DNA from: Bacilli bacterium
Lineage (GTDB): Bacteria; Bacillota_I; Bacilli_A; RF39; UBA660
Reading direction: 5' to 3'
NCBI GenBank assembly: GCA_051872415.1
Contig: JBJEDW010000061.1
Span: 3,986 to 35,985, forward strand
DNA length: 32,000 bases
In this document: positions 1,861 through 23,681 of the stretch, one piece after another
How positions within the stretch are numbered: the stretch's first letter is position 1
Layout of the letters: every line of letters begins with the position of its first letter
Made by a program: the position numbers and the translations under genes
Notes under the pieces: model-generated
Told to the model about the DNA's origin: nothing
Database searches by the model: none
Seen by the model: only the letters and a program-made list of their open reading frames with translations

Positions 1861-1864
1861 TAAA

Positions 1865-2962
1865 ATGAATGTTCCTAAATTAAGATTTAAAGAATTTAAT
1901 GATGAATATATAAATCTAAAATACAAAGATGTTTTAAAAATAAAAAGTGGTAAAGATCAAAAACAAGTTGAATGCGAAAGTGGTATTTATCCAATTTTAG
2001 GAACTGGTGGACAAATAGGAAAAACAAATTCTTTCCTATATGATAAACCATCTGTTTTGATAGGACGAAAAGGGACAATCAATAAACCACAATATATGGA
2101 AACACCTTTTTGGACTGTTGACACTTTATTTTATTCCCATATATATGAACCTAATATACCTAAATATTTATTTTATTCTTTTCAAAATGTTAATTGGAAA
2201 AAATATGATGAATCAACAGGAGTTCCTAGCTTGAGTTCGTCTACTATCGAAAGTGTTGAGTGCAATATTCCATCAAAAGAAGAACAACTTAAGATAGCCG
2301 ATTTTCTATCGCTATTAGATAAAAAAATAGACCTTCAAACTAAGAAAATTGAAGACCTTAAGTTATTTAAAAAAGGACTAATTAAAGATTTTTATAATGA
2401 ATATAATTTAAGACAAATAAAAATAAAAGAAATAGGTAAAATAGTTACTGGAACTACTCCATCAAAGTCTATAAATAGTTATTGGGATAATGGTAATATT
2501 ACATGGGTAACTCCAACAGATATTAATGACAGTAGAGATATTAATGATTCATTTTTTAAAATTACTGATACAGGTTTAGATAAAGGAAAATTTATTCCTA
2601 AAAATTCAGTTTTAGTTACATGTATAGCTAGTATAGGTAAAAATGCTATTTTAAAAGTTGATGGATCATGTAATCAACAAATAAATGCAATTATACCTAA
2701 TAAAAATTTTAATTATAATTATGTATATTACTTAATTGAATCTATATCTAATTATATGAAATCTATTGCTGGAACATCTGCTACATCTATTATTAATAAA
2801 GAAGAATTTTCAAAAATAATAGTCAAAGTTCATTCAAAAGAGAAGCAGGATTATATTGCATCAGTATTGTCACAGTTTGAAATAAAAATACTATTAGAAA
2901 TTTCAAAATTAAATAAATTCTATCAATTAAAAAAAAGCCTTATGCAAAATATGTTTGTATAA
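1865..2962 (+). CDS. hsdS: Type I R-M specificity subunit HsdS (full length)
   Basis: Two target-recognition-domain halves separated by the conserved spacer SKEEQLKIADFLSLLDKKIDLQTKKIEDLKLFKKGL, with a C-terminal conserved helix LKKSLMQNMF. The track starts at TTG 1847. I prefer ATG 1865 (MNVPKLRFKEF), which parallels MKPKLRF of the other copy. Confidence 0.93.
   Translation: MNVPKLRFKEFNDEYINLKYKDVLKIKSGKDQKQVECESGIYPILGTGGQIGKTNSFLYDKPSVLIGRKGTINKPQYMETPFWTVDTLFYSHIYEPNIPKYLFYSFQNVNWKKYDESTGVPSLSSSTIESVECNIPSKEEQLKIADFLSLLDKKIDLQTKKIEDLKLFKKGLIKDFYNEYNLRQIKIKEIGKIVTGTTPSKSINSYWDNGNITWVTPTDINDSRDINDSFFKITDTGLDKGKFIPKNSVLVTCIASIGKNAILKVDGSCNQQINAIIPNKNFNYNYVYYLIESISNYMKSIAGTSATSIINKEEFSKIIVKVHSKEKQDYIASVLSQFEIKILLEISKLNKFYQLKKSLMQNMFV
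2301..2371. repeat. Inverted repeat, central hsdS spacer (right copy)
   Basis: See 197-267: 71 nt with 2 mismatches. Confidence 0.9.
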
Positions 2963-2968
2963 GGTTTT

Positions 2969-3592
2969 TTATAATCTTTCTATAATATGTAGATATTCAT
3001 CAATTGTGCTTGGAAATTTTGAATACGCTCTTCTATTATAATCAATAGATAAAATATTTAAATTTTTATATATTAGGTTTAAAATTTCATCAATATCATT
3101 ATAGGTTATTTTAAAATCTTCGTTTACTTTTCCATTATCATAAAAGTATTTTTTATCTTGATGAGCATAAACTTTATCTCTTTGAGACTTTATATTTTCT
3201 ATTTGCTTACTATATTTATTCAATTCCAATTTAAAATTATTAATATCATCTAAAACATTTACTTTTTTTACTAAAACTTTTTCTGTTATTTTTGTTTCTT
3301 CATTATAGAACTCATCAATAAATTCATTTAAAAATTGTTCTTTCTGATTTTCGCAACAGTTAATTAACTTAAATATACTTTTATCTTCCCTTTTATCTAT
3401 TAATTTTGCAATTTTCATTACAAATGAATATTTTAATGAATTTAAAACATTATATAAAAATCCATTTATTTGTTTTATCTCTTTTTCATTTCCCTGAACA
3501 TTACTTAATATACCTTTATATAATTCAAAATCACTTAATGCACTATTAACCATTTTGAAGTATTGTGAAAATTCACATTCTAATTTTATCAT
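2969..3592 (-). CDS. Hypothetical protein, HEPN-like (AbiU2-type R-x5-H motif), coupled to hsdM
   Basis: 207 aa and predicted helical. The SQRDKVYAHQD segment fits the HEPN Rx4-6H motif. Its ATG overlaps the hsdM stop by 1 nt (TAATG at 3590-3594). The functional call rests on the motif only. Confidence 0.5.
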   Translation of the reverse strand: MIKLECEFSQYFKMVNSALSDFELYKGILSNVQGNEKEIKQINGFLYNVLNSLKYSFVMKIAKLIDKREDKSIFKLINCCENQKEQFLNEFIDEFYNEETKITEKVLVKKVNVLDDINNFKLELNKYSKQIENIKSQRDKVYAHQDKKYFYDNGKVNEDFKITYNDIDEILNLIYKNLNILSIDYNRRAYSKFPSTIDEYLHIIERL

Positions 3593-5151
3593 TAAAGTTC
3601 CTCTAACCCTAGTTCTTTTAAGTAAACATTAAGTTCTTTATCTACTTCTGCTATTTGCTTATCAATATCTTTAAGATCTTGTTGAATAGCTTTAATATCT
3701 ATTTCTTCTTCCTCTTCAAATGTGTCTACATACCTAGGAATATTTAAATTATATTCATTTTCTTTTATTTCAGACATTGGAGCAACATGGCAATATTTTT
3801 CTATCTCAACTCTATTTTTATAAGTTTCAATAATTTTATCAACATCTTCATCTCTTAATCTGTTTTGATTTTTTCCAGCTTCAAATTCTTTAGAAGCATC
3901 TATAAATAAAATATTGCCTTCGTTTTCTCTGCATTTTTTAAATACTAATATACAAGTTGGAATACTTGTTCCATAAAATATATTAGCTGGTAATCCAATT
4001 ACTGCATCTAAATAGTTTTTTTCTTCAATTAAATATTTTCTAATTACTCCTTCTGACGCTCCTCTAAATAAAACACCATGAGGAAGAACTACTGCCATAG
4101 TTCCATTATCTGATAATTGGTATATCATATGTTGAATAAAAGCAAAATCTGCCTTTGATTTTGGTGCTAATTTACCATAAGCACTAAATCTTTCATCTTC
4201 TATAAACTTTGGATCAGCACTCCATTTTGCAGAATATGGAGGATTAGCAACTATTGCATCAAATTTCATATCTAAATGTCTAGGTTTTTCTAAAGTATCA
4301 TCGTTTTTAATATCAAAATGTTTAAATGAAACTCCATGTAATAACATGTTCATTCGAGCTAAGTTGTAAGTTGTAGAATTAAATTCTTGTCCATAGTATG
4401 AACTTACCTTACATTCTTTACCAACTCTTAAAAGTAACGATCCGGATCCACAAGTAGGATCATATACATTTTGAAGTTTTGATTTATTTAGCGTAACTAA
4501 TTTTGCAAGAATTCTTGATACTTGTTGTGGTGTATAAAATTCTCCAGCTTTCTTTCCAGCTGATGCAGCAAAGTTTGAAATTAAGTATTCGTATGCATCT
4601 CCTAAAACATCAATTTCCGCATCTTCATAATGAAAGTCTATATCATCTATTTTTAACATAATAGTTGAAATTAGTTTGGTTCTTTCTGCTTCGCCTCTAC
4701 CTAATTTAGAGTTGTTTAAATCCATATCTTCAAATAGATTCTCAAAATCATCTTCTGATTCATTACCTAAAGTAGATTCTGATATAACATTAACTGCTTT
4801 AGCAAGCATTGAGATATCAAATTTACCAGTTTTAATATTATCAATTAATGTACTCCATAGATATTCTGGTTCAATACAATAACCTATATTTTCTTCCTCT
4901 ATTAAATCGGACTTAAATTCTTGTGCTTGTTCTTTATCCTTGAACATGTCAGCATATTTCATTTTATTTCTTAACATTACATTTTCAACGTAATTAACTA
5001 AATTTTCAGATAAATATCTGTAGAATATTAATCCTAAGATATAATTTTTGAAATCATTAGCATCCATATTTCCTCTTAGGGAATTAGCAATACTCCAAAG
5101 TTGTTTTTGAAGTTCTGCTTGTTGTGATTGTTGTTTTTCTTCTCTTGACAT
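3592..5151 (-). CDS. hsdM: Type I R-M N6-adenine DNA methyltransferase subunit HsdM
   Basis: N-terminus has the HsdM_N pattern LWSIANSLRGNMDANDFKNYILGLIFYRYLSE. AdoMet motif DPTCGSGSLL and catalytic NPPY (IVANPPYSAKW) are present. Confidence 0.97.
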   Translation of the reverse strand: MSREEKQQSQQAELQKQLWSIANSLRGNMDANDFKNYILGLIFYRYLSENLVNYVENVMLRNKMKYADMFKDKEQAQEFKSDLIEEENIGYCIEPEYLWSTLIDNIKTGKFDISMLAKAVNVISESTLGNESEDDFENLFEDMDLNNSKLGRGEAERTKLISTIMLKIDDIDFHYEDAEIDVLGDAYEYLISNFAASAGKKAGEFYTPQQVSRILAKLVTLNKSKLQNVYDPTCGSGSLLLRVGKECKVSSYYGQEFNSTTYNLARMNMLLHGVSFKHFDIKNDDTLEKPRHLDMKFDAIVANPPYSAKWSADPKFIEDERFSAYGKLAPKSKADFAFIQHMIYQLSDNGTMAVVLPHGVLFRGASEGVIRKYLIEEKNYLDAVIGLPANIFYGTSIPTCILVFKKCRENEGNILFIDASKEFEAGKNQNRLRDEDVDKIIETYKNRVEIEKYCHVAPMSEIKENEYNLNIPRYVDTFEEEEEIDIKAIQQDLKDIDKQIAEVDKELNVYLKELGLEEL

Positions 5152-5160
5152 AATATCCTC

Positions 5161-7920
5161 CTATAAAAATTTCTTAAATATATTTTTTATAAATTCTTTT
5201 ACTTTATTTTTCACAATTCTTCTTTCCCAATAATCATCTATATCTATTGCTTCATTTATTTCTTTATCTGGAAAAATACTGCTATATTCATATTCATTAA
5301 TTATTTCATTTAATTTATCTAAATTAATTTTATTATTTAAAGCAAATTTTTTAATTTCTTTTTCTCTTTCTTTATTCATATGGTCATTGAAAGCAGCATC
5401 TATTGAATCAGCTTCTTTTAGTGCAGGTAATATAGATTTTAAGAAGCTCTTAATTAAATCAGCTTTTAAGAATAATTCATCATCTGTAATATTTGTTAAT
5501 TTACTTTCAATATCTGCAATATCACGTTTCTTTTGGTCTTCGTTTGTTAAATCAACATTTCTAATTAAATTAAGTATATATGAAACATTAATTCTATCAG
5601 TTTGAATTAATTCTAGCGAGAATGTAACATCATTTAAAATTGAACTTTTTTCTTTATCATTAGAAATTTTTCTGTATAACTCATAATATTTACTTCTATA
5701 ATCTTCAAACATTTGAGTATTAATAACATCATCAGCATTATCTAAATCAAATTGATTAAATGTTTTTAAGCTAACAAGTATTTTAGCAACATCTCTAAAT
5801 GCTAAAATAAACTCTTTTATATCTTCTTCTCTTTCTAGTTCATCAACACTATCAACAGTCGGAGTAATGCTTAGCAACTTATCTACAGCTTTATTAAATT
5901 TATCTAAATAAACAGGATATGGTGCCATTATTACAGTATCAATACTATCAGTTTGAGAGAATAATTTAACAGCTTCATCTACTCTAGCTTTAGTGGTTCT
6001 ATAACAAACTATATTCCCAAATGGTTTTGTTTCAGATTCAACTCTATTTGTTCTTGAAAATGCCTGAATTAAATCATGATATTTAAGTGGTTTATCAACA
6101 TATAAAGTATTTAATCTTTTAGCATCAAATCCAGTTAATAACATATTAACAACTATAACTATATCAATTTCTGTATTTTTTATTCTTTTGCATATATCTC
6201 TAAAATAACCATCAAAATTATGAGTAGAGAAATTTGTGTTGAATATTTTGTTATAATCTTCCATATATCTATCTAATACTTCTCTTGAATGTTCTGGATT
6301 TTTATCTAAATCTTCATTTGCTCCGCAAGTAAATATTGCTCCTATTTTTAAATCATGATTTATCTTTTTAAAAGCATCGTAATATTTTATTAGTAATGGT
6401 ATTGAAGATACAGTAAATAATGCATTATATTTTCTATCTCTTGTTTTAATATTATGATGATCAATAATGTGTTGAGCAATTAAGCCTACTCTTTCATATG
6501 CTAAGAATACTTCATCTGTATCTATCCCTTCCACCATAATGTCTTCTTCTAACGCAACTGTATTTGCTTCCATAAACTTTATATAGTCAACATTAAATCC
6601 TAATACATTTTCATCTTTAATAGCATCTTTTATTAAGTATGTATGTAAGCATTTTTCGAATATATCAGCAGTACTTCTACCATCTTGTGATGGATTTTCT
6701 TTAAATCTAGGAGTGCCAGTAAATCCAAAGTATTGCGCTTTACTAAATGTTTTAGAAATCTGTTTATGCATATCACCAAATTGTGATCTATGACATTCAT
6801 CTATTATGAATACTGTTTTTAAATCTTTATATTTTTCCATAATATGTGCATATTTAGGATTAGTACAAGCATTAGCCATTTTTTGAATTGTAGTTATAAT
6901 TAATTGCTTAGAACTATCTTTAATCTGCTCTATTAATTTATCAGTTTGATTAGTCATGTCAACGCAACCTGGGTCAAATTTATTAAATTCATCTAATGTT
7001 TGTTTATCCAAGTCCTTTCTATCTACTAAAAAGAATACTTGATTGATAGAAGGTTCTAAAGAAAGAATTTGGCTTGTTTTAAAAGAAGTAATTGTTTTAC
7101 CAGAACCAGTTGTATGCCATACATAACCATTATTACTTGTATCTAATGCACGAGATACAATATTTTCAACTGCATATACTTGATAAGGTCTCATTACCAT
7201 CAATGTTTTTTCTGTTTCATTAACAATCATATATCTTGCTATCATTTTTCCTATATGACACCTGTCTAAGAAAAACACACAAAATTGTTCTAAGTTATTA
7301 ATTCTATCATTATTTATATCAGTCCAATAAAAAGTAAATCCATAATTTAACTCTTGATCTCCATTTGCAAAATATTTAGTTTCTACTCCATTACTTATTA
7401 CAAATAATTGAATAAATTTATATAAGCCTTGATATGAATGCCTTTTATATCTCTTAATTTGATTAAAGGCTTCTTTCATATCAATACCTCTACGCTTTAA
7501 TTCAACTTGAACCAAAGGTAATCCATTTATTAAAATAGTTACATCATATCTATTTGTATATTTTCCTTCGACAGTAGTTTGATGAGTTACTTGAAATATA
7601 TTCTTACACCAATCTTTTGTATTAAATAATTCAATATAAACAATACTTCCATCATCTCTTTGAATATCCTGTTTTTGCCTTAATTCTTTTGCCGATTGAA
7701 AAACACCTTTACCAGATATTTTAACCATTAATCTTTCAAATTCTTTATCACTTAAATTTTTACCTTTAAGTTCTATTTTGTTATGAATATTGACTTGTTC
7801 TCTAAAATTTTGTTCTAATTCATTAACATCATTTATTACTACTTTAGAATACCCTTGCTTTGCAAGTTGATCTATCATACGATCTTCTAATCTTGCTTCA
7901 CTTTCATATACTCCCATCAT
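5161..7920 (-). CDS. hsdR: Type I restriction endonuclease subunit HsdR
   Basis: Has Walker A TTGSGKT, DEAH-box IIDECHRSQ, helicase C motifs (QAFSRTNR) and a long C-terminal helical domain. The track starts at TTG 7932. ATG 7920 or 7917 lies behind GGTAGGTG and is the more likely start. Confidence 0.96.
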   Translation of the reverse strand: MMGVYESEARLEDRMIDQLAKQGYSKVVINDVNELEQNFREQVNIHNKIELKGKNLSDKEFERLMVKISGKGVFQSAKELRQKQDIQRDDGSIVYIELFNTKDWCKNIFQVTHQTTVEGKYTNRYDVTILINGLPLVQVELKRRGIDMKEAFNQIKRYKRHSYQGLYKFIQLFVISNGVETKYFANGDQELNYGFTFYWTDINNDRINNLEQFCVFFLDRCHIGKMIARYMIVNETEKTLMVMRPYQVYAVENIVSRALDTSNNGYVWHTTGSGKTITSFKTSQILSLEPSINQVFFLVDRKDLDKQTLDEFNKFDPGCVDMTNQTDKLIEQIKDSSKQLIITTIQKMANACTNPKYAHIMEKYKDLKTVFIIDECHRSQFGDMHKQISKTFSKAQYFGFTGTPRFKENPSQDGRSTADIFEKCLHTYLIKDAIKDENVLGFNVDYIKFMEANTVALEEDIMVEGIDTDEVFLAYERVGLIAQHIIDHHNIKTRDRKYNALFTVSSIPLLIKYYDAFKKINHDLKIGAIFTCGANEDLDKNPEHSREVLDRYMEDYNKIFNTNFSTHNFDGYFRDICKRIKNTEIDIVIVVNMLLTGFDAKRLNTLYVDKPLKYHDLIQAFSRTNRVESETKPFGNIVCYRTTKARVDEAVKLFSQTDSIDTVIMAPYPVYLDKFNKAVDKLLSITPTVDSVDELEREEDIKEFILAFRDVAKILVSLKTFNQFDLDNADDVINTQMFEDYRSKYYELYRKISNDKEKSSILNDVTFSLELIQTDRINVSYILNLIRNVDLTNEDQKKRDIADIESKLTNITDDELFLKADLIKSFLKSILPALKEADSIDAAFNDHMNKEREKEIKKFALNNKINLDKLNEIINEYEYSSIFPDKEINEAIDIDDYWERRIVKNKVKEFIKNIFKKFL

Positions 7921-7947
7921 TACACCTACCAATCAATTTATATTTCA

Positions 7948-7956
7948 ATTATATCA
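7948..7956 (-). promoter_or_regulatory. Candidate extended -10 promoter for hsdR-hsdM
   Basis: The minus strand reads TGaTATAAT about 25 nt upstream of the hsdR start. There is no good -35. Confidence 0.4.
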
Positions 7957-8029
7957 CGAAAATTGGTAAACTTTGGATTTGAACTAAAAAATTATAAAAA
8001 AAAAGAAACTGCACTCTCTTATTACATAA

Positions 8030-8069
8030 TCAAAAATGAAAAATAGGGCTCTACCGCTAGATAGTGCCC
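8030..8069 (-). terminator. Intrinsic terminator downstream of the Abi_2 gene
   Basis: Minus-strand RNA is GGGC-A-CUAUC[UAGC]GGUAG-A-GCCC followed by UAUUUUUCAUUUUU. Confidence 0.6.
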
Positions 8070-8141
8070 TTGCAAAAATGTATTACCATTTTTTCCTTGC
8101 ATAATCATAATACCATATATTAATGATCATGTCAAACTATT

Positions 8142-9152
8142 TTAATCTGAGTTTACATTATAATTTTTTTCAATGATTTTTTTAAAATATAAATATACAG
8201 ATTTCAATAGTCCATTATTATTATAATACTCTTTATGACGAATTATTCTTCCAAAAAACAATTCATTAATGTCTTCTTTTACATTTTCCTTAATACCCTT
8301 GCTAGTTACTATTTCATTAAACATATATAACGCATAAGTCATTTGCCTTATTCTGGAATTACTCAATTTATTGTTTCTTGTTTCTTTACCTACTCCACAT
8401 TCTCTTAAATAATTAATAACTAATGTATCCGCTCTATGTAGATTATCTTTTTTATCTAGTTCTGATAAAACGCAAGAATTATGAGCTACTGCATTTCTAA
8501 GTTTTACTACTTCTCTTAAAATAAATATGTTTTTAAGTTCATTCTCTAAATTATATTCTTTAGAAAAAAATTCATAAAAATTAACTAATTCACCAAATGT
8601 AATTATTTCAAGAAATTCCCATACAGGAATATTTTCTAATTGTTGATTCTTATCTATATCGTATTTAGAAAAAATTTTTTTATAATATTCACTTCCTACT
8701 TTTTTAAAAATACTATTATGCACTTTTTTAGGAAACTTTTTATCATTGAAATCTCTTTCTAAATACATGTTAACAGATTTATAGCCATTTTCTTCTTCTA
8801 TGTTTTCAATTAAATTTAATATTCTTATTTTTAAATAATGTTCAATATCAATAATTATTTTAAAGAATAATAGTCTAACTCTATGATCTATAATAGCCAT
8901 ATCTTTAAGATAAGCAAAATCTAAATCTTGATATAATCCTTCATATTCACCTGCTGGAGATGGATATTTCAAAAAATTATTTTTATATGAGGTTAAGTTA
9001 TAATAGTTATTGTTATTTCTTAAATACTCTTCTGCATCCTTTTCACTAATTTTTTCAAACTTAATATTTTTTCTTTTTAAATACGGAACTAATTCGTTAA
9101 TTTTCATCATAGGTCTCAACTCTGATATTTTTTCATCTGTTTCAATCATCAT
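8142..9152 (-). CDS. Abi_2 family (AbiD/AbiF-like) abortive-infection protein
   Basis: 336 aa. The N-terminal pattern LKRKNIKF..EKDAEEYLRNNNNYYNLTSYKNNF and the DLDFAYLKDMAIIDHRVRLLFFKIIIDIEHYLKIRI core match what I recall of Abi_2 family proteins. Confidence 0.75.
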   Translation of the reverse strand: MMIETDEKISELRPMMKINELVPYLKRKNIKFEKISEKDAEEYLRNNNNYYNLTSYKNNFLKYPSPAGEYEGLYQDLDFAYLKDMAIIDHRVRLLFFKIIIDIEHYLKIRILNLIENIEEENGYKSVNMYLERDFNDKKFPKKVHNSIFKKVGSEYYKKIFSKYDIDKNQQLENIPVWEFLEIITFGELVNFYEFFSKEYNLENELKNIFILREVVKLRNAVAHNSCVLSELDKKDNLHRADTLVINYLRECGVGKETRNNKLSNSRIRQMTYALYMFNEIVTSKGIKENVKEDINELFFGRIIRHKEYYNNNGLLKSVYLYFKKIIEKNYNVNSD

Positions 9153-13257: not shown

Positions 13258-13668
13258 TTATTTTCCTTTTTTTGTTCCGTATTTTGAACGAGCTTTTTTA
13301 CGATCTTTAACGCCTTGTGTATCCATTGTTCCACGAACAATATGATAACGTACACCGATAAGGTCTTTTACACGTCCACCACGAATTAATACAACGCTGT
13401 GTTCTTGAAGATTATGTCCTTCTCCAGGAATATAAGCATCTACTTCTTTACCGTTTGATAAACGTACACGTGCATATTTTCTTAATGCTGAGTTTGGTTT
13501 TTTTGGTGTTTTTGTTCCTACACGAATACATACTCCACGTTTTTGTGGTGATGCAGTATTAGTAGCTTTCTTTTGTAATGTGTTCATTCTAATTCCAAGT
13601 ACTGGAGATTTAGACTTTCTTGTTTTGTCTTTTCTCTTCTTTCTTACTAATTGATTTATTGTTGGCAT
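13258..13668 (-). CDS. rpsL: 30S ribosomal protein S12
   Basis: [13 protein letters not shown]...[11 protein letters not shown] trimmed the start to ATG 13668, which lies behind AAAGGAG. The track's upstream extension is not S12-like. Confidence 0.98.
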
Positions 13669-13760
13669 AACTTCTCCTTTCCACACACATATCCAGGTGT
13701 ATCATTTTTCTTAATTTTTATTAGGTTTAGCTAGTAAACCCAATAAAATTCAACGATAGT

Positions 13761-13789
13761 AATATATCATTTTACCTTTAGTTTGTCAA
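13761..13789 (-). promoter_or_regulatory. str operon promoter
   Basis: The minus strand reads TTGACA (13789-13784), a 17-nt spacer containing TG, then TATATT (13766-13761), about 95 nt upstream of rpsL. Confidence 0.65.
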
Positions 13790-13817: not shown

Positions 13818-14864
13818 TTATGATATGCAATTTTGATTATTGTATGAAGATTTAAATTTCATTTTATTAAAACATTTGTTTTTGAAATGATAACTATCCG
13901 CATATTTAATATGTCCAAGAAAAGATGCAATACTCATTTCAACTTTTGTAATATCTAAATTTTCTTGCTCGTATAAATTATTCCATGTTTTTATTTTCTT
14001 TATAATGGTTTTTTTGTTTCTTTTTCTTAATAGTACATAATCTTCATGGATTATGTATCCACAAAAATCACAACCTTTTTTAGAAGGATAATATTTACTT
14101 TTTTTATTTAATTCTAGTTTTAAGGTTTCTATTAAAAACTTTTCTATTTTTTTTAGAACTTCTTTAGCAGTTTTTTTATCTTTTACTAAAATAACAAAAT
14201 CATCCATATATCTACAGTAGCACTTTATTCTTAAACCAAATTTTATGTAGTGATCAAGTTCGTTTAAATAAATATTAGCAAAGTACTGACTTGTGTAATT
14301 GCCGATTGGTATTCCTTTTTCGTTAAAGTCTCCGATTATTGTTTTTGTAAGCTTTAAAAATTTTTTGTCTTTAAAGTTTTTCTTCAAAATGTTATATAAG
14401 GTTTCTCTATCAATGCTGAAAAAATACTTTTTAATATCAAGCTTTATTATATAATAATCACCATATTCTTTTCTCATACATCTCATATAGTGTTTTATCT
14501 TTTGGTATGATTTGTGAGTTCCTCTTCCTATTATACAAGCATAAGTGTCATTTATGAACTTAGGAACCATGTATGGTTTTAAAAATTCTTCTACATACCA
14601 CTGATGAATAACTCTATCTTTGATCGGAAGTGCTTTTATTAATCTTTCTTTTGGTTCATAAATTGTAAATTCTCTATATTTTGAAGGTGTGTAAGTTAAA
14701 TTTAAGAGTTCATCATATATAGATACTAAATTACTTTCTAAGTTTTGTTCAAAGTTTATTATTTCTTTTTTATTTATTTTACCGTCACGAGCTCTATAGA
14801 AAGCATTATATAAATTAGTAAACTCAAGTTTTTCGTCATACTTTACTTTAATCTTTTTTGGCAT
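13818..14864 (-). CDS. DGR reverse transcriptase
   Basis: 348 aa. It has the RT motif 4 variant PIGNYTSQYFANIYL (the IGxxxSQ form typical of DGR RTs) and motif 5 YCRYMDDFVIL (YMDD). It has no maturase or endonuclease extension. Confidence 0.93.
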   Translation of the reverse strand: MPKKIKVKYDEKLEFTNLYNAFYRARDGKINKKEIINFEQNLESNLVSIYDELLNLTYTPSKYREFTIYEPKERLIKALPIKDRVIHQWYVEEFLKPYMVPKFINDTYACIIGRGTHKSYQKIKHYMRCMRKEYGDYYIIKLDIKKYFFSIDRETLYNILKKNFKDKKFLKLTKTIIGDFNEKGIPIGNYTSQYFANIYLNELDHYIKFGLRIKCYCRYMDDFVILVKDKKTAKEVLKKIEKFLIETLKLELNKKSKYYPSKKGCDFCGYIIHEDYVLLRKRNKKTIIKKIKTWNNLYEQENLDITKVEMSIASFLGHIKYADSYHFKNKCFNKMKFKSSYNNQNCIS

Positions 14865-15208
14865 AGTCCTATCCAGTTATCTAAGTTTTTATCTACTGCA
14901 TTTATTTTTCTTGACCAAGCTTCGTAATTTTTAATGGAAATATATTTTTCTTTATACGATACTCTTATATAAAAAGAAATAACTTTTATATTTGATGAAA
15001 TTTCTTTTAGGTAACCTAATTTGAGGTTTATTTTGGTTTCGTTGTAAGCATAAATCAGATATTTATATCCTTTTTCTAATATTTTTCTAATATCACTGCA
15101 TAAAACATCACGTTCATATTTTGGAAATTTTTTCATTATGTTATATGAATAATAAAATAAATCTATATATCTATTGTAAATAATGGACTTTTCAAATTCT
15201 TTATTCAT
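14843..15208 (-). CDS. avd: Avd-like accessory variability determinant (four-helix-bundle protein)
   Basis: 121 aa and basic. The MKKFPKYERDVLCSDIR pattern resembles the 23S-rRNA-IVS/Avd family. It overlaps the RT start by 22 nt and the upstream ORF by 4 nt. Confidence 0.8.
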   Translation of the reverse strand: MNKEFEKSIIYNRYIDLFYYSYNIMKKFPKYERDVLCSDIRKILEKGYKYLIYAYNETKINLKLGYLKEISSNIKVISFYIRVSYKEKYISIKNYEAWSRKINAVDKNLDNWIGLCQKRLK

Positions 15209-15555
15209 AGTTTTTCTTTTAACCTTCCGATTATATTAAGGGCTTCTAGTGGGGTTAAGTTATTGATATCTACCTTTTCTAAAATTTTAATTATAGAATC
15301 TTTATCACTTTCTTTTACTATTTCATATTTTATTTTATTTTCTTTAAACATTTCTTGGTATTTTTTTATGGATTTAACAGGAAAACCACATTTTTTTATT
15401 TCATTATTGAAATTGCTTAATTTAAATTCAAATTTTTTATTTAGGAAAATAGCATCTTCAGCGAGCGCTATGTAGAATATTCCACTTTTAAATAAATATA
15501 TTATTTTTTCATTATTTCTTTTTAATTTTAAATATTTTTCGTATGTTTTACTCAT
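15205..15555 (-). CDS. MutS domain-I-like mini-protein (DGR accessory candidate)
   Basis: 116 aa. YEKYLKLKRNNEKIIYLFKSGIFYIALAEDAIFLNKKF...CGFPVKSIKKYQEMFKENKIKYEIVKE parallels the MutS mismatch-binding domain (QYL.LK...P..ILFFR.GDFYELF..DA...GIP.......Y...L...G..VAI.EQ). The C-terminal LTPLEALNIIGRLKEKL parallels the MutS C-terminal helix-turn-helix. RBS is AAAGGAG. Confidence 0.65.
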   Translation of the reverse strand: MSKTYEKYLKLKRNNEKIIYLFKSGIFYIALAEDAIFLNKKFEFKLSNFNNEIKKCGFPVKSIKKYQEMFKENKIKYEIVKESDKDSIIKILEKVDINNLTPLEALNIIGRLKEKL

Positions 15556-15619
15556 GTTTTTACTCCTTTTACTTTTTTTATCCAGCGCAACTAAAGCGAA
15601 AACTTGTTAATACTAAAAT

Positions 15620-15651: not shown

Positions 15652-15807
15652 ATCTGTAGTTTCTAACTTTCACATATTGTTACTAGCTCTAAACTATCGT
15701 TTTTTATTTTTTTCTTGCACTTGCAAGAAAGGTAAAAGCTCTTTACTAAATTAGCTTTGTATTTAATCCTTGAACTAAATCTCTCACCATATTATTTAGT
15801 AATCCAA

Positions 15808-15938
15808 AGGGCACCAGGACAACCACGCGAGCCGAGTTGTTACTGTTGGCATTACCGTTGTTGTTGTTCGAGTTCATCACGCCTGCGTTAGCCCCATTGT
15901 TGTAGTTACCGCCACGTATGAACCAAGGGTTCGAAGCA
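15808..15938 (-). repeat. DGR template repeat (TR)
   Basis: 131 nt homologous to 16196-16326. On the coding strand it is rich in AAC/AAT codons (14 of them). The 72-aa track ORF here (15746-15964) is just the TR read in the VR frame. Confidence 0.92.
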
Positions 15939-16173
15939 GAACGAGACACTTTACAAACTTTCACCTATCTTAACAAATGTTAAGACCATATTCCTTGCCA
16001 CTTCTTGCGAAGCGGAAGGCAATCGGGACCCTGGCGGGAAAAGCCCGCTTGCCTTGTGCTTTATTATATTATATTGTATCACTATTTTCGCCTGATTTTA
16101 GTAAACTAAAATCTAGGAAAAATAGTGTTATTGTTGTTTGCCTTGCAAAAATTGGACAGTCGTCCGAAAGGGG

Positions 16174-16193
16174 CATAGTCCTAACGGACTATG
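16174..16193 (-). promoter_or_regulatory. Perfect 8-bp stem / 4-nt loop hairpin immediately 3' of the VR and stop codon
   Basis: catagtcc-taac-ggactatg, abutting the TAG stop (16194-16196). It is in the position of the hairpin/cruciform that guides DGR target recognition. Confidence 0.6.
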
Positions 16194-18287
16194 CTAGGGC
16201 ACAAGGACAACCACGCGAGCCGAGAGGAAACCGTCGGCATCACCAGGGTAGTAGTCCGAGCTCATCACGCCAGCGCTAGCCCCAGAGTCGCAGCCACCGC
16301 CACGTCCGAACCAAGGGCGCGGAGCAAATGCTACATATCCATAATCCGAATACCAACCTGCCCCCGATGTTGCTGTTACTTCTTTTACTGCATCTCCTAA
16401 TTTACTTCTTTTCTTTTGGGTAATACTTGTTCCAAAACTATATTTATCTAAGTATTTATTTTCTGGATAAGCTATTCCTGTATAACTTGTATATGTTACA
16501 CTTTCATATAGAATTCCAGTGTATCCTGAGTGATATCCTACATAATCTCCTGTGTTACTATATCCTGCCATCATTGTTGTTCCATCATTTGATACTATGT
16601 TACCCATTACATATTCCCAAGCACCACCTGACATATCATATATTCCATAGATATTTCCTGTTGTTGATGCAACTTTACTCATATCTTTTGTCGAACTTTT
16701 GGTATTTGTATTGTAATTTAATAAGTATCCATCATAGGTATAGAAACCATAACTATTATACGTAGTAGTTGATGTTTGATCAGTATATGTACCATTTATC
16801 GGTGTTTGTCCTCCGACATTTCCTCCGCTTCTTCCTGTATAGTATGAAGAACTATTATTTATATTTATTTCTTTATTTATTCCATATTTTGAGTGTGATA
16901 GGTATGCTACTGCTCCCCATTCTTGGTTTTTCATCATATGAGTATCATCTGTAGATGCAAATCCATATTTGTTGCCACTATCATTCATTGCCATTATGTT
17001 AGTTTCAAACGAACTTACTTTTTGACTTCTTAAACTTTGTACATCTGGTTTTATTGTTATATCGCTTATTGTTCCTGTTGTTTCAAATTTTCCTACCCAC
17101 ATTCCTTCTAGTTCTTGAGATCCAAATGTAAAGGCTGGATGATTATATGTTTTACCATTACAAGTACTATCTGTACATGTAGCATTTGTACTTTTTAATT
17201 TACAGGTTTCAGATGGATCTCCATCTGTTCCTGATATACTATCAGTACATGATATTTCTCCAGTTGTTTCTGTTCCATTTTCAAAAGTTATTTCTATTTC
17301 TTGAGGTTCACTTGTTACTGTTCCATCAGCATTATAATTCCATACTTTATACTTATATCTTGGTATCCATACTTGCATTGTTAAAATATCATCCATTGGT
17401 ATTGTTGTACCTGGACTTGCATTTTTATATGTACTTCTATTGGTTTCACTTACTGTTACACTATTTGCCCACATCTTATCGTTATAATCATACCATTTGT
17501 ATGTTTTGCTATTATTTGTACTATCTGCTTTTTTCCATACCTCTGCATCTTCATCATAATATACTGCAATCATATTACTTGTTAATACTGGTACATTTGC
17601 CCCACTTATATCTAAGTTATCCCTTGTTTTTACTCCTACTTTAAATTTATATTGATATTTTTTTACTGTCTGTGTATTTTCATCATAGAATTTACTTGCT
17701 TCTACTTTACTATCTAACCATACTCTTAATTTAAACTTCTTACTTATCTCTCTTGTTGTTCCATCATGTGTGTTTGTATCTGCATATATCATCTTTTCAC
17801 TATTTAAATCACTTATTTTTGTCGGATTTAACAAAACGTTCCCTTCATAATCTGTTAGATATACTTTTACTTCATCATCTGTTAATGCTGTCATATTTGT
17901 ATCTACACTTAATTTTTCTAAATATACTCCATATGTTATATCTATTGGTTTACTTGTTGTTGTTTTAACTGAAAAATCAAATGTTTCACTTTGGTTTTTT
18001 CCATCTGTATCACTTATTGGAAGAGCATTTTCTATACTTATTATATTGCTGTTGCTTTCTAAAAACTCTAGTGATACATCTCCTGTATTTATTGTATTTG
18101 CACTTCCTATAAAACCATAATTCCACACAGCAAAACTTATGCCCACAGAAAGCATAAGTAATATTACAAGTAATAGAATTGTTATTATTTTCCTCTTATT
18201 ATCGCCTTTTTCTATAGAGGTTTTAGTTAAATTTGCCCCCCCCCCCCCAGACGAACATTTGTTTTGTTTTTTAGATAGTTTTTTCAT
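16194..18287 (-). CDS. DGR target protein: N-terminal membrane anchor, beta-rich ectodomain, C-terminal C-type-lectin/FGE-sulfatase-like domain carrying the VR
   Basis: 697 aa. The KRKIITILLLVILLMLSVGISFAVW segment is a TM helix. GIYDMSGGAWEYVMGN resembles the FGE/CLec motif GxYDMxGNxWEW. The C-terminal PWFGRGGG...ARVVV is typical of DGR VR scaffolds. Confidence 0.9.
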   Translation of the reverse strand: MKKLSKKQNKCSSGGGGANLTKTSIEKGDNKRKIITILLLVILLMLSVGISFAVWNYGFIGSANTINTGDVSLEFLESNSNIISIENALPISDTDGKNQSETFDFSVKTTTSKPIDITYGVYLEKLSVDTNMTALTDDEVKVYLTDYEGNVLLNPTKISDLNSEKMIYADTNTHDGTTREISKKFKLRVWLDSKVEASKFYDENTQTVKKYQYKFKVGVKTRDNLDISGANVPVLTSNMIAVYYDEDAEVWKKADSTNNSKTYKWYDYNDKMWANSVTVSETNRSTYKNASPGTTIPMDDILTMQVWIPRYKYKVWNYNADGTVTSEPQEIEITFENGTETTGEISCTDSISGTDGDPSETCKLKSTNATCTDSTCNGKTYNHPAFTFGSQELEGMWVGKFETTGTISDITIKPDVQSLRSQKVSSFETNIMAMNDSGNKYGFASTDDTHMMKNQEWGAVAYLSHSKYGINKEININNSSSYYTGRSGGNVGGQTPINGTYTDQTSTTTYNSYGFYTYDGYLLNYNTNTKSSTKDMSKVASTTGNIYGIYDMSGGAWEYVMGNIVSNDGTTMMAGYSNTGDYVGYHSGYTGILYESVTYTSYTGIAYPENKYLDKYSFGTSITQKKRSKLGDAVKEVTATSGAGWYSDYGYVAFAPRPWFGRGGGCDSGASAGVMSSDYYPGDADGFLSARVVVLVP
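16196..16326 (-). repeat. DGR variable repeat (VR), including the A-free 3' IMH-like block (16196-16223)
   Basis: Aligns without gaps to the TR. I count 24 substitutions at TR adenines. The A-free block TCGGCTCGCGTGGTTGTCCT is identical in both. Confidence 0.92.
18236..18248 (-). repeat. Homopolymeric G13 tract (C13 on the + strand) in codons 13-17 of the DGR target gene
   Basis: Read directly as gCCCCCCCCCCCCCag, encoding SGGGGA. The gene is in frame at this length. Confidence 0.95.
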
Positions 18288-18508: not shown

Positions 18509-19404
18509 TTAGTATTGTAATACATTTAAATGTTTTAGTATGTTAGTAAGGATTGTTTTGTCTTCAATTAAGTTTATTGCGAAGCATTTTTTTCCTAGAT
18601 CTTTGAATGATGTCTTTGAATGATGAACCACAGTGATATAGAAGCTTTTTGTCTATAATTATAAATCTATCATGAAAAGCATTGCTAGTGAGTGCTGTTA
18701 TGTTGTGGTACTGACTATTATATTTTTAATCAACTCTTTGTTTAAATTTTTACTGTATACTTTTATTGGAACCTGGATGTTTCTTAATAAATCAAATAGC
18801 TTTTTTCCTGCGTAATTATCTATGATTATTATTTCTTCTTTGGCTTTTGATAATATATCAATCATTAGAGAGTAAGCATCGTATATTTGTCCTTCGAAGA
18901 AGATGTGATTATTTATTTTGTTATTATCTAGTTTTTTGAATATGATATCAAATTTATTATCGTGATCTATTATTTTTGTTTCTATATTAGATAATCTGTT
19001 ACTATAATTATTTGTTGCTATATATTTTTTCATTTCTACGAATGCATCCATTATTTTTATACTTATTTCTTCTGCTACAGGTGTTCTTAATATTGAACTT
19101 AGCATCGCTACTCCTTGCTCTTAAACACATATGTTCTATTATATTTTCTTCCACGAGTTTCTACAGTATTTTTTTTGGTTTCAGATTAAAACCAAAAAAT
19201 TTTTGATTCTTCTTCTGTTAATCTAAACATAAATCTTTCTGGGAATCTATTGATATGTCTTTTTACTGCCAAGTTTATAGATTTTGTCCCATTTTTACAA
19301 CCATAAAGCATAGCTAGGTCAGAATCAAGCATTACTTGTTTGCCTCTGATTTTATATATTAGATCTTCTATTTTTATATTATCTTTTGTTATTATTTCGT
19401 TCAT
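18509..19404 (-). pseudogene. ORF6N/KilA-N-type DNA-binding protein gene, decayed by at least four lesions
   Basis: The track fragments at 19186-19404 and 18698-19105 are pieces of one gene. After ...RFPERFMFRLTEEESKIFWF comes an in-frame TAA, followed by a frameshift before EQGVAMLSSILRTP. A further frameshift precedes AFHDRFIIIDKKLLYHCGSSFKD. A 13-nt tandem duplication (18600-18625) then breaks ...SFKDLGKKCFAINLIEDK.... Confidence 0.8.
18600..18625. repeat. 13-nt perfect tandem duplication (tctttgaatgatg x2)
   Basis: Read directly. Removing one copy restores the ORF6N C-terminal frame. Confidence 0.9.
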
Positions 19405-19535
19405 AAGAATTCACCACTTTCGATATAAGCTAAATTTATTAATTTGTCTAATTAAGTTTATCAAAATAATATATTTGATATTTTTTTATTATTTAGATGA
19501 TTTAAACTTATAAATAAAAGAACTCTTCTATTTTT

Positions 19536-20384
19536 TTAGATGAGCTCTTCTATTTCTTCTTTAGAAAGACCAGTACATTCAGATATTGTACTTATATTCA
19601 TACCTTTATTAAGCATATTTTTTGCTATTTCATACTTTTCATTAGTTGAACCTTGTTCATAACCTTGACTCATTCCAACTTCAATTCCTTGTTCATATCC
19701 TTCTTTAATTAGAGTATTATGTACCATTTCTGCGTCTTTTTCTTTCGAGACTACCTCTATAAACTCTGGATCTTCATTTAGTTTTTCTATCTTTTCTTTG
19801 TACTTTTCCATCATTCTATCTCCTTTGCATACCACATCTAAATCTTTTGGCTCTAAATCTAACATTAAAAAATATTTATACTCTAGAGCCTTTTTCTTAT
19901 CTCCATGATACCACATATTCATTATTTTATCCATGTTTATTTCTATTATTTTAAGTTTATCACAGTAACATTTATTGTTATCTTTATCATACATCACGTA
20001 ACAAGACTTGATATCTTTTTCTATTCCTAGTCCCCATGTTATATTAAGCTGAATATGCATTTTAGTATCTAAATAGTCGTCACCTTTAAACACACTATTT
20101 GAAAAAACTGATGAGATATAAGCAAAGTTTCTTATAGGAAGAGAATTGTAATATCCATTGTTTATTTCTAAGTTAATAGTTTCAGTTTTTGTTTTAACAA
20201 GGACATCTAGTGTTTTAGTCTTTATTTTAATATTTGGTTTTTCAAGTTCTTTTGGATCAAGTACTAGTTCTTCAATACTTAAATCTAAGGTCTTTTCTAA
20301 AAAATATTTAAGCAAATCTTTTTGAGATTCACATCCAATAGCATTTTTAAATCCAGCATCGTATCTTGCGGTGTAAAAAGCCAT
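19536..20384 (-). CDS. Rpn-family recombination-promoting nuclease / PD-(D/E)XK putative transposase
   Basis: YDAGFKNAIG...DLLKYFLEKTL...LDVLVKTKTETINLEINN forms the nuclease core. C-terminal repeats EGYEQGIEVGMSQGYEQG are followed by the IAKNMLNKGMNISTISECTGLSKEEIEEL helix-turn-helix. I chose the start at ATG 20384, behind GGAGGTG. Confidence 0.85.
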   Translation of the reverse strand: MAFYTARYDAGFKNAIGCESQKDLLKYFLEKTLDLSIEELVLDPKELEKPNIKIKTKTLDVLVKTKTETINLEINNGYYNSLPIRNFAYISSVFSNSVFKGDDYLDTKMHIQLNITWGLGIEKDIKSCYVMYDKDNNKCYCDKLKIIEINMDKIMNMWYHGDKKKALEYKYFLMLDLEPKDLDVVCKGDRMMEKYKEKIEKLNEDPEFIEVVSKEKDAEMVHNTLIKEGYEQGIEVGMSQGYEQGSTNEKYEIAKNMLNKGMNISTISECTGLSKEEIEELI

Positions 20385-20489
20385 TTTATTCACCTCCAAA
20401 AGCACTATAAACTAAATAAAATAAGATGTAAAATGACCATTTAGAAGATTTGATCAAAAGAAAAAGATGAAACATAAATATTGGTATAA

Positions 20490-20793: not shown

Positions 20794-23319
20794 TTATAAT
20801 TGTTCTTTTAATTTTTCTAGTTTGTCTTGTTCTTCTTTTAATTTTTGTCTATCTAGCTCTACTACATTTTGAGGAGCTTTATTTACATAATTTTCGTTTG
20901 ATAGAAGTTTTTGTCTTTTAGTTATAGAAGCTTGTAATTTTTCTATTTCATTTATTAACAATTCTTTGTTAATTTCTTTTCCTTTTTGATAGAAATCTAT
21001 TGCTATGTAGTTTGATTCATATGAATATTTTTCTCCTTCTTTTGGTGAGAATAAATTTTCTTCTTTTACTTTTAACATGTTTTTGTAGATTTCTTCTACT
21101 TCTTTGTCTGTTTTTAAATTGATACTTGCTTCTTTTGTTATGTTATTTGTTACTTTTAGATTTCTTATATTGGTTATGTCTTCAATTACTTTGTCTAGTT
21201 TTTGTTCTTCTTCTTTAAATATTTCTTGTTTGTTTTCTTGTGGATAAGAACTTATCATAATACTACTTGTTTCTTTTACTGGTAGTTTTTGGTAGATTTC
21301 TTCAGTAACATAAGGCATAAATGGATGAAGCATTTTTATTATTTTGGTTAAAACTTCTAGAAGAACTGTTTTTGTTGTTTGATTTTCTAGTTTTGGTTTG
21401 GTAAGTTCTATATAGTTGTCACAGAAATCTTCCCAAATGAATTTATAAAGAGTATTTCCTACGTTGTTAAATTCATATTTTTCCATATTTGTTCTTACAT
21501 TTTTAATTGTTTTGTTTAGTTTGGTAAGAATCCATTTATCTTCGATAGATAGGTTTTCATTGGTTGGATTTATGTTTTCTATGTTCATAAGTACAAATCT
21601 TGAGGCGTTCCATAGTTTGTTTATGAAGTTCCAAGTTGATTTTACTTTTTCTTCATCGTATCTTAAATCCATTCCTGGTGCTGTATTTGTTGTTAGGAAA
21701 AATCTTAGGGCATCTGCGCCGTAACTTTCTATTACATCCATTGGATCTACACCATTTCCTAGTGATTTTGACATTTTTCTTCCTTGTTTATCTCTTATAA
21801 GTCCATGGATTAAGCAATCTTTGAATGGTCTTGTGTTTGTAAAATGTAGTCCTTGGAAAGTCATTCTGTTTACCCAGAATGGTATGATATCGTATCCTGT
21901 TACTAATACGTTATTTGGATAGTATCTTTTTAGATCTTGGGTATCTTCTGGCCAGCCTAGTGTTGAAAACGGCCAAAGTGCACTTGAGAACCAAGTATCT
22001 AATACGTCTTCGTCTTGTTTCCAACCTTCGCCTTCTGGTTTTGCTTTTCCTACGTATATTTCATCGTCTTTATACCATGCTGGAATTCTGTGACCCCACC
22101 AAAGTTGTCTTGAAATGCACCAATCGTAAGTTATTTCCATCCAGTGATTCATTGTTTTTTCGTATCTTTCAGGTACAAAGTTTACTTTTTTGTCTTTGTT
22201 TTTTTGATTTTCTAATACTCTATCTGCGAGTGGACGCATTTTTACAAACCATTGTTTGGATAAGTAAGGTTCAACCATTACCCCAGTTCTTTCAGAGTGT
22301 CCAACATTGTGGGTTATTTCTTCTATCCTGATTAGTAAATCTTGTTTTTGAAGATCGTTTACTATTTGTTCTCTTGCAGTAAATCTATCTAATCCTTGAT
22401 ATTTTCCAGCATTTTCATTCATTGTTCCGTCTTCATTTAGAACATTTATTCTTTCTAAGTTATGTCTATTTCCTACTTCAAAGTCATTAGGATCGTGTGC
22501 TGGTGTTATTTTAACTACTCCTGTTCCAAATTCTGGATCAGCATGTTCATCTGCGATTACTGGAATATTTTTGTTTAAAATTGGTAAAATTACATTTTTA
22601 CCTATGTATTTTTGATATCTTGTGTCTTTAGGGTTTACTGCTACTGCGGTATCTCCGAGTAATGTTTCAGGACGAGTTGTTGCTACTTCTAGAAAGGTTT
22701 CTTCTCCTTCGATGTAGTATTTTATGTGATAAAAGGCTCCTTTTACTTCTTTATAAATTACTTCTTCGTTTGAAAGGGCTGTTTTTGCTTCTGGATCCCA
22801 GTTTATTATTTTTTCTCCTCGGTAGATTAATCCTTCGTTATACAGTTTTATAAAAACTTCTTCTACGGCATTTGACAGACCTTCGTCAAGGGTGAATCTT
22901 TCTTTTCTATAGTCTAGTGATAGCCCTAGTTTTGCCCACTGATTCCTTATGTTTTCTGCGTATTCTTCTTTCCATTCCCAGGCTTTTCTTAAGAAACCTT
23001 CTCTTCCTAGCTGGTATTTATCTATTCCTTCACTTTTTAGTTTTGCTACTACTTTAGCTTCTGTTGCTATTGCTGCATGATCCATTCCTGGAAGCCATAG
23101 AGCATCGTATCCATCCATTCTTTTATATCTTATTAGAATATCTTGAATTGTTGTATCCCAAGCATGGCCTAGATGAAGGCGTCCTGTTACGTTTGGGGGT
23201 GGTATTACTATACAGTAAGGTTCTTTTGATTTGTCTCCACATTCAAAATATTTATTTTCCATCCATGTTTTGTATTTTCCTTTTTCTACTTGTTTGTGAT
23301 TGTATTTTTTTTCTAACAT
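20794..23319 (-). CDS. valS: Valine--tRNA ligase
   Basis: 841 aa with the HIGH-type motif [18 protein letters not shown], and a C-terminal coiled coil. Confidence 0.99.
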
Positions 23320-23325
23320 TTTTCC

Positions 23326-23545
23326 ATCTCCTTTTGTTTTTTATAAAAAAAGCCTTCATCCAAAGGACGAAGAGCTCGTGGTACCACCTTATTTTATAAT
23401 ATTTCTATTATCTTATTTGGCTATAACGTTTGCCTTACGGATTATCTTACTTGGTTTCGGATAATCTGCTAAAAAAGCTACCTTCAACTATCTTTATTAT
23501 CTATTTACACCATACATAGACTCTCTTTAAATATTAATAGTTTAC
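23326..23545 (-). promoter_or_regulatory. T-box riboswitch leader of valS, with terminator at 23345-23376
   Basis: The minus strand has AAAGAGAG, a distal-loop-like GGUGUAA and a GAAA-capped stem III. The T-box sequence AAUAAGGUGGUACCACGAG (23377-23395) follows. The terminator is CUUCGUCC-UUU-GGAUGAAG plus U7. Confidence 0.85.
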
Positions 23546-23564
23546 TCCTCTTTTTTTCTTGCTT

Positions 23565-23681
23565 TTAATATAATTTTGATATGTTTACTATTTCTCCAGC
23601 GACTAGGAATATTACCATTAGAATAACGAATGCTAAGATTAGAAAAGCCATTAGTCCCCAGCCATGATTGTTTAATTTCAT
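23565..23681 (-). CDS. Candidate 38-aa hydrophobic small protein (not in the ORF track)
   Basis: MKLNNHGWGLMAFLILAFVILMVIFLVAGEIVNISKLY. The ATG lies 4 nt after the GAGGTG embedded in the trxB stop region. It has one predicted TM helix. Confidence 0.4.
   Translation of the reverse strand: MKLNNHGWGLMAFLILAFVILMVIFLVAGEIVNISKLY

Follow-up and report, generated by a model that had tools for sequence, protein, structure and literature searches.

A gene for a much reduced MutS lies within a diversity-generating retroelement (DGR) on contig JBJEDW010000061.1 of a Bacilli bacterium, in a stretch of 32,000 nucleotides that I will call, at its full length, the window. The gene, an open reading frame (ORF) of 116 codons, can be assigned with near certainty to the MSL ("MutS-like") family, whose members are accessory to DGRs, and I will refer to it and to its product as MSL. 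It adds to a family that is already known and functionally uncharacterised. The protein joins a MutS domain I to the helix-loop-helix that ends MutS, and the family keeps the phenylalanine with which MutS contacts a mismatched base and has lost the glutamate that contacts the same base. Tentatively, and somewhat short of calling it probable, I propose that MSL acts with Avd and the reverse transcriptase (RT) as a non-catalytic blocker of mismatch repair at the heteroduplex between the cDNA and the variable repeat (VR).

The assignment to the family rests on the features by which the family has been described: the size of the protein, its location within the cassette, its homology to MutS, and the presence of avd without HRDC. 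A preliminary description of this DNA, made from its letters alone, had named the gene a mini MutS and had mentioned that small MutS-like ORFs are listed in DGR surveys as occasional accessory genes. The name is supported by profiles, fold, gene neighbourhood and literature alike, and the mention was correct, since MSL is one of the four classes of DGR accessory gene recognized by Wu et al. (2018, NAR 46:11, PMC5758913).

Domain I and the C-terminal segment of MSL

The ORF and the parts of its product lie as follows:

15205-15555, minus strand: MSL accessory ORF, 116 amino acids, ATG start, from the ORF list, with a match to Pfam MutS_I (E 3.3e-11)
15286-15540, minus strand: MutS domain I, residues 6-90, by alignment to Pfam MutS_I; approximately residues 13-95 of E. 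coli MutS
15469-15477, minus strand: F27-Y28-I29, counterpart of the mismatch-contacting Phe36-X-Glu38, aligned to F36-Y37-E38 of E. coli
15208-15297, minus strand: C-terminal helix-loop-helix, about residues 87-116, homologous to the tetramerisation/dimerisation domain of MutS by a C-terminal-only profile; residues 823-853 of E. coli MutS

The pattern of MutS domain I, which the preliminary description had read by eye, is borne out by profiles. The Pfam MutS_I profile, run as a check, matches positions 5-93 of its 113 to MSL with 43.9 bits, against a gathering cut-off of 20.6, and it matches all 28 of 28 aligned relatives as well. The NCBIfam profile mutS1 also finds MSL (E 4e-10, 38.6 bits), with a score far below its full-length cut-off of 641.7, as expected because MSL is a fragment. 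When a profile made from the 28 relatives was compared with the sequences of the PDB, domain I aligned to residues 13-95 of E. coli MutS. The fold agrees: the AlphaFold2 monomer model built on the alignment of the 28 relatives (mean pLDDT 91.9) found, in a Foldseek search of the PDB, top matches that were all domain I of MutS or MSH proteins, with TM scores normalized to the query of 0.62-0.64 and root-mean-square deviations of 1.5-1.9 A over 82-85 residues. In comparison with E. coli MutS, MSL lacks the last beta-hairpin of domain I, and a deletion of four residues relative to MutS falls in the loop before CGFP. The same alignment confirms that the glutamate of Phe-X-Glu is replaced, giving FYI. 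MutS_I is the only domain found by Pfam within the 116 residues, so the connector, core/lever and clamp domains (II-IV) and the ABC ATPase domain V are indeed absent, as had been claimed. To judge from this domain content, MSL cannot be a repair ATPase.

The preliminary description likened the last residues of the protein to the C-terminal dimerisation/helix-turn-helix (HTH) segment of MutS. The similarity to the C-terminal oligomerisation region is real, and what was wrong was its identification with the HTH. The profile of the 28 relatives has a second aligned stretch, at residues 817-852 of E. coli MutS, and full-length MutS chains score about 8-10 bits above chains truncated at residue 800. 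A C-terminal-only profile, built from the C-terminal parts of 164 non-redundant relatives, aligns to residues 827-852 of the 853 of E. coli MutS with 15.3 bits and a per-sequence E-value of 3.6e-7; none of 5000 shuffled MutS sequences reached that score, the maximum being 8.4 bits. A Paenibacillus MutS is matched in the same register and again at the very end of the protein (876-912 of 914), and the structures of isolated MutS C-terminal domains (CTDs), 2ok2 and 3zlj_C, are marginal matches. The model predicts helices at residues 84-94 and 102-115, joined by the loop VDINNLT. Residues 823-853 of MutS have been described as a conserved helix-loop-helix, by which the dimer is stabilised and tetramers are formed, with D835 in its acidic loop (PMC1636413, PMC3783165). 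The segment is therefore the helix-loop-helix of the CTD, and the HTH of domain V was rejected as the identity of the MSL C-terminus on the strength of where the E. coli and Paenibacillus alignments fall.

Almost no linker precedes the helix-loop-helix in the MSL of the window, and no beta-clamp-binding motif (resembling QLxLF) could be seen by eye upstream of it in the alignment. The simplest history is one in which MSL arose from a mutS of the Bacillota type through an internal deletion. The MSL motif KCGFP resembles MCGVP of Paenibacillus MutS.

The relatives permit a distinction between what the family conserves and what it does not. G25, F27 and Y28, equivalent to G34, F36 and Y37 in E. 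coli, are essentially invariant among the 164 relatives, F27 being present in 163 of the 163 aligned and Y28 in 161. The position equivalent to Glu38 is occupied by I, L or V, rarely by Y, R or T, and never by Glu. The residues K55-C56-G57-F58-P59 constitute a family signature. The relatives have a median length of 137 amino acids and a mean pI of 7.6, as compared to 9.5 for the MSL of the window.

A word-indexed search yielded 79 relatives, all of them stand-alone proteins of 94-181 amino acids annotated with PF01624 (three also with PF27441.1). An exhaustive profile search of 1.84 billion representatives yielded 436 relatives at E<=1e-10, of which 97 remained at E<=1e-30; almost all are stand-alone and 90-230 amino acids long. 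The annotation PF27441.1, precomputed for the homologues P0012, P0047 and P0051, might model the C-terminal segment.

The notion that MSL is a non-functional remnant of mutS, or an ORF that arose by chance, has in its favour the small size of the protein and nothing else. It is refuted by conservation, and I consider it scarcely credible. The family is large and conserved, with 436 cluster representatives of consistent length at E<=1e-10, and for this reason MSL is no fragment of a gene in decay. Relatives that are only 35-60% identical share eleven invariant columns, the position in the operon is conserved, and the gene has its own ribosome-binding site.

A phage origin of the subfamily was considered and rejected; as far as the peptide pattern used can show, its genes are chromosomal. 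A search with that pattern found no relatives in GenBank phages and one partial match in IMG/VR. The only match in PHROG was weak and was to a family of the size of full-length MutS. No relatives were found in a plasmid collection, where the sole match was a full-length mutS.

Four relatives of about 200-214 amino acids (P0090, P0122, P0130 and P0136) carry N-terminal extensions of 56-70 residues. The extension of P0090 is an HTH of the Cro/C1 type (HTH_26, E 1.5e-10). All four proteins are candidate fusions, or else have miscalled starts.

Such extensions raise the thought that MSL serves the element as a general DNA-binding protein or as a regulator, independently of mismatches; it would bind DNA non-specifically or at a particular site (for example the VR and its initiation of mutagenic homing (IMH) element, or a promoter) and so control the expression of the DGR or its choice of target. 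The loss of the glutamate, which predicts poor discrimination of mismatches, fits this idea, as does the observation that the Msl-bearing DGRs of Bacteroides are the tightly regulated ones. Fusions to an HTH are few, however, and the absolute conservation of the Phe-Tyr wedge together with the pairing domain of MutS points instead to an activity related to that of MutS. I regard such a general DNA-binding or regulatory role as improbable.

The DGR of the window and its counterparts

The remaining features of the cassette are these:

15563-15569, minus strand: Shine-Dalgarno sequence AAAGGAG, read from the sequence, spaced 7 nt from the ATG of MSL
14843-15208, minus strand: avd (accessory variability determinant), 121 amino acids; Pfam bAvd E 1.3e-15, NCBIfam DivGenRetAVD E 8e-16
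13818-14864, minus strand: DGR reverse transcriptase, 348 amino acids, overlapping the end of avd; Pfam RVT_1 E 2.7e-20
15656-15799, minus strand: structured RNA, probably the structured spacer RNA of this DGR; Rfam RT-14 (RF02921), full-length (1-144), 51.2 bits against a gathering score of 48.1
15808-15940, minus strand: template repeat (TR), 133 nt with 34 adenines, by alignment to the VR
16196-16328, minus strand: VR, at the 3' end of the target gene, by alignment to the TR
16194-18287, minus strand: DGR target gene, 697 amino acids, with the VR at its C-terminus, from the ORF list
16173-16194, no strand assigned: perfect 9-bp inverted repeat (GCATAGTCC / GGACTATGC) with a 4-nt loop, from a repeat search

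The element is a bona fide DGR because it has an RT, a TR and VR whose differences are specific to adenine, and a VR at the 3' end of a target gene. Of the 133 positions of the two repeats, 29 are mismatched, 24 of them at adenines of the TR. The VR ends at the stop codon of the target gene, whose product has a weak match of the FGE-sulfatase/C-type-lectin-like kind (Pfam FGE-sulfatase E 0.0017, below the gathering score). Read along the minus strand, the order is the target gene with its VR, the 9-bp hairpin, a spacer of 253 nt, TR, RT-14 RNA, MSL, avd and RT. The RT-14 RNA thus lies directly 3' of the TR and 5' of the MSL ORF; in other DGRs the structured spacer region supports the priming of cDNA synthesis. 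The 9-bp inverted repeat abuts the end of the VR and overlaps the stop codon of the target gene. It resembles the hairpin/cruciform element for target recognition known downstream of the VR in other DGRs. The spacer between VR and TR also contains longer, imperfect inverted repeats (16010-16061 and 16077-16130).

The gene arrangement given in the preliminary description can be read in the sequence as claimed: the coordinates and ATG start of the 116-codon ORF, its own AAAGGAG, and the ATGA (15205-15208, 'tcat' on the plus strand) in which the stop of MSL overlaps the start of avd. The placement of the ORF inside a DGR operon is confirmed by the matches of its neighbours to bAvd and RVT_1 and by the adenine-biased TR/VR pair. 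No terminator-like sites were seen in the window between the TR and the point at which the RT gene ends, in keeping with a single transcription unit, and no match to HRDC was found among the ORFs of the DGR cassette or the scanned ORFs of the window.

The DGR is chromosomal, in a low-GC (23-35%) member of the Bacillota, and lies directly upstream of the str operon rpsL-rpsG-fusA-tuf (rpsL at 13258-13686). Between the stop of RT and rpsL is a near-consensus promoter on the minus strand (TTGACA-17-TATATT with an upstream TG, 13761-13789). The closest public sequence is a contig (L001) of a metagenome-assembled genome (MAG), again labeled "Bacilli bacterium", with an MSL 96% identical.

In order to assess the linkage of MSL to DGRs, I examined contigs taken from one genome per species. 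A relative was found on 100 stretches, 80 of which were kept for the counts, almost all from MAGs of gut Clostridia or Bacilli. An RT lies within 6 kb of the relative in 66 of the 80 loci and avd in 64, and an adenine-biased repeat like a TR/VR pair is present in 43. In 46 the arrangement is that of the window, with MSL and avd on one strand and MSL directly upstream. A relaxed search for RT in the loci that had none found nothing further; in 13 of the 14 loci without RT or avd, less than 2.6 kb of sequence is available on one side. Homologues are therefore found predominantly at DGR loci. The preliminary description had named two results that would be fatal to its reading, homologues mostly outside DGR loci and the lack of a significant profile match to MutS domain I, and neither was obtained.

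One relative, P0209 (227 amino acids), consists of the domain I of MSL without the helix-loop-helix, an Asn-rich linker and a complete Avd, and the gene for RT follows directly. The fusion occurs on contigs from three samples (L083, at 401-1084, as well as L084 and L085). A natural fusion of this kind argues that MSL and Avd act together.

Eight of the DGR loci (L016, L032, L033, L036, L041, L054, L077 and L080) contain two genes with MutS domain I that are 18-27% identical to each other, for example at 6001-6402 (plus strand) and 8044-8493 (minus strand) of L036. The first type resembles the gene of the window. The second is a divergent protein of about 150 amino acids ('VKVGxFYxxYGKDAY...SCGFP') with a longer helical tail, encoded directly upstream of avd. 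Both types lack the glutamate, and they may form a heterodimer, as the MSH pairs of eukaryotes do.

The organization of these loci bears upon another possible role, that of a factor in cDNA synthesis. In that case MSL, in company with Avd-RT, would bind either the hybrid of TR-RNA and cDNA or the region of priming; it might, for example, stabilise mispaired primer ends opposite template adenines and so raise the yield or processivity of cDNA synthesis. The tight translational coupling to avd and RT, the natural MSL-Avd fusion, the position of the gene next to the TR and the structured RT-14 RNA, and the conserved Phe wedge are all compatible with such a role. On the other hand, MutS domain I is known as a reader of the minor groove of duplex DNA (PMC3848065), the RT-Avd of Bordetella carries out adenine mutagenesis without any such factor (PMC5758913), and the retention of the oligomerisation domain of MutS would be left unexplained. 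I find a role in cDNA synthesis not very plausible.

Mismatch repair and the possible role of MSL

What MSL keeps and what it has lost may be set against what is known of MutS. Phe36 stacks on the mismatched base, and the mutation F36A abolishes specific binding, while Glu38 hydrogen-bonds to the same base, E38Q abolishes discrimination, and Glu38 lies in the path of signalling to the ATPase (review PMC3848065). With the Phe kept and Glu38 replaced, MSL retains the wedge but not the residue through which recognition is coupled to repair. Its lack of an ATPase would mean that it forms no sliding clamp and recruits no MutL.

Recent work shows that host mismatch repair limits the replacement of the VR by mutagenised cDNA in DGRs. 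Deletion of the host mutS in Bacteroides ovatus raises retrohoming 5-10 fold, in an all-or-nothing manner (Macadangdang et al. 2024, bioRxiv 10.1101/2024.11.15.621889). Engineered DGR systems suppress mismatch repair for the sake of efficiency, and a 2026 preprint gives as its reason for doing so the "many MutS-like homologs" in DGRs. Tetramerisation of MutS through its CTD has been reported to be important for the suppression of recombination. Since host MutS restricts retrohoming in Bacteroides, the likeliest role for MSL is the protection of the heteroduplex from mismatch repair, in line with the suggestion in the preliminary description of a protein that would recognise or shield A-mismatched heteroduplexes. 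Among the proteins encoded by DGRs, only MSL is linked in an obvious way to the recognition of mismatches.

I infer that MSL binds DNA, dimerises and opposes repair, along the following lines. Translated with Avd and RT from the transcript that contains the TR, it would act in the same complex as they do. The helix-loop-helix would serve either to make a homodimer with two domain I heads or to dock onto the CTD of host MutS. The conserved Phe wedge would let MSL sit on distorted or mismatched DNA, and the glutamate that couples contact with a mismatch to repair signalling would not be there to pass the signal on. The densely mismatched heteroduplex of cDNA and VR might thus be shielded from MutS-dependent repair or heteroduplex rejection, whether through occupancy of the DNA, through capping of the MutS CTD, or both, and more of the adenine-mutagenised cDNA would then be fixed in the VR. 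The retention of the head and pairing tail of MutS, the loss of the glutamate and the ATPase, and the fusion to Avd suggest that MSL shields against repair or caps MutS.

The same CTD homology could serve the opposite end. MSL might be a recruiter of MutS, its helix-loop-helix docking MSL and the Avd-RT-cDNA complex onto the host protein, so that repair directed against the parental strand would convert the whole VR. The homology would allow a mixed pair of helix-loop-helices from MSL and MutS, the all-or-nothing repair of the VR in Bacteroides fits long-patch, strand-directed repair, and Wu et al. suggested that mismatch repair may be involved in some DGRs (PMC5758913). However, in the only natural system tested retrohoming rises when mutS is deleted, though the DGR there is one without Msl, and nothing in MSL could impose a choice of strand. 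Recruitment of MutS therefore seems to me a rather unlikely function.

Several considerations weigh against the proposed blocking of repair. The clamp domains supply much of the grip of MutS on DNA and are absent from MSL; because these domains and the last hairpin of domain I are missing, the binding of DNA by MSL on its own is uncertain. The loss of the glutamate should, by analogy with MutS, lower discrimination between mismatched and matched DNA. The DGR of the Bordetella phage needs neither MutS nor MSL (PMC5758913). In laboratory cultures of Bacteroides, the three DGRs that bear Msl are quiescent and the two without it are constitutively active, so Msl is neither necessary nor sufficient for high DGR activity. 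As the preliminary description had said, the family is without functional characterization: a search of the literature found no functional study of, or experiment on, any MSL. Finally, one locus (L053, MSL at 4331-4741) is a clear orphan. Neither RT nor avd occurs in the 4.3 kb before its MSL gene or the 5.8 kb after it, and that gene converges on a split gene for the helicase recG, with a ToxN toxin gene nearby.

A more specific and more speculative form of the blocking mechanism, which I would call possible though unlikely, is molecular mimicry. The helix-loop-helix would pair with the CTD of host MutS and cap the surface through which it forms tetramers, while the domain I with its Phe wedge occupied the heteroduplex. 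MSL would in that event be a natural, portable anti-mismatch-repair factor that turns off MutS-dependent heteroduplex rejection only at the site of the DGR, and DGRs with two paralogues would form an asymmetric heterodimer like the MSH pairs of eukaryotes.

Were the blocking of repair true, MSL would constitute a small natural part by which the efficiency of directed evolution with DGRs might be raised without a global loss of repair. As genome annotation, the result is an ordinary one: the appropriate label for the gene is DGR MSL accessory protein.

Neighbouring genes and comparison with known systems

The remainder of the window contains several features apart from the DGR. From 800 to 9152 there is a defence island, consisting of a tyrosine integrase (800-1771), hsdS of a type I restriction-modification system on the opposite strand (1847-2962), a HEPN AbiU2 gene (2969-3592), hsdM (3592-5151), hsdR (5161-7932) and an Abi_2 gene (8142-9152). 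The inverted hsdS next to the integrase suggests that the specificity system is phase-variable. The interval between the DGR target gene and valS (18698-20405) holds an ORF of 135 codons without a Pfam match (18698-19105), a fragment with an ORF6N domain (19186-19404) and a gene of the PD-(D/E)XK transposase family (19536-20405), which may be remnants of a mobile element. A T-box leader on the minus strand (23360-23568, 114 bits) precedes the gene (20794-23319) for a class I aminoacyl-tRNA synthetase with the C-terminal arm of Val-tRNA synthetase, and uvrA is at 25532-28360.

The closest known system is of course the MSL class itself. In the survey of Wu et al. (PMC5758913), MSL genes were present in 16 of 372 DGRs, encoding proteins of 112-283 amino acids with near-neutral pI, always together with avd and never with HRDC; the class includes the DGR of Legionella, and it defines "Architecture D". 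Msl has since been described in three DGRs of Bacteroides, Bfr, Bth and Bun (bioRxiv 10.1101/2024.11.15.621889). The gene of the window is like those of the survey in being a small ORF of the cassette (116 amino acids) with homology to a mismatch-recognition domain, in the presence of avd and in the absence of HRDC. The retained helix-loop-helix, the family-wide loss of the glutamate, the fusion to Avd and the order TR - RT-14 RNA - MSL - avd - RT appear not to have been stated in the MSL papers examined.

With MutS1, MSL shares the sequence and fold of domain I, the Phe wedge, and the C-terminal helix-loop-helix in register, but it is without domains II-V, the glutamate, the last hairpin of domain I and the beta-clamp-binding motif.

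Conjugative elements and phages encode polyvalent proteins that also contain MutS-I domains (Iyer et al. 2017, J Bacteriol 199:e00245-17, PMC5512222). These resemble MSL as instances of domain I without an ATPase, on mobile or selfish elements of Bacteroidota and Firmicutes, with a proposed role in non-catalytic DNA binding. They differ in being giant multidomain proteins, often with 4-5 tandem copies of the domain and ArdC-N, with no CTD helix-loop-helix and no link to DGRs, whereas MSL is stand-alone and chromosomal. Two proteins met in the searches, P0149 (2323 amino acids) and P0204 (1756 amino acids), have four to five tandem MutS_I domains, DUF285 repeats and ArdC-N, and so belong to the polyvalent class; one MutS_I repeat in these giants keeps Phe-Tyr-Glu (FYESY).

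Dominant-negative inhibitors of mismatch repair, of which MutL E32K is an example and which are employed in recombineering and in the engineering of DGRs, offer a parallel of another kind. The proposed outcome is the same, in that a mismatched heteroduplex escapes MutS/MutL locally or transiently and the edits are fixed. MutL E32K, however, is an engineered mutant of full-length MutL that acts on MutL, whereas MSL is a natural fragment of MutS with a putative activity.

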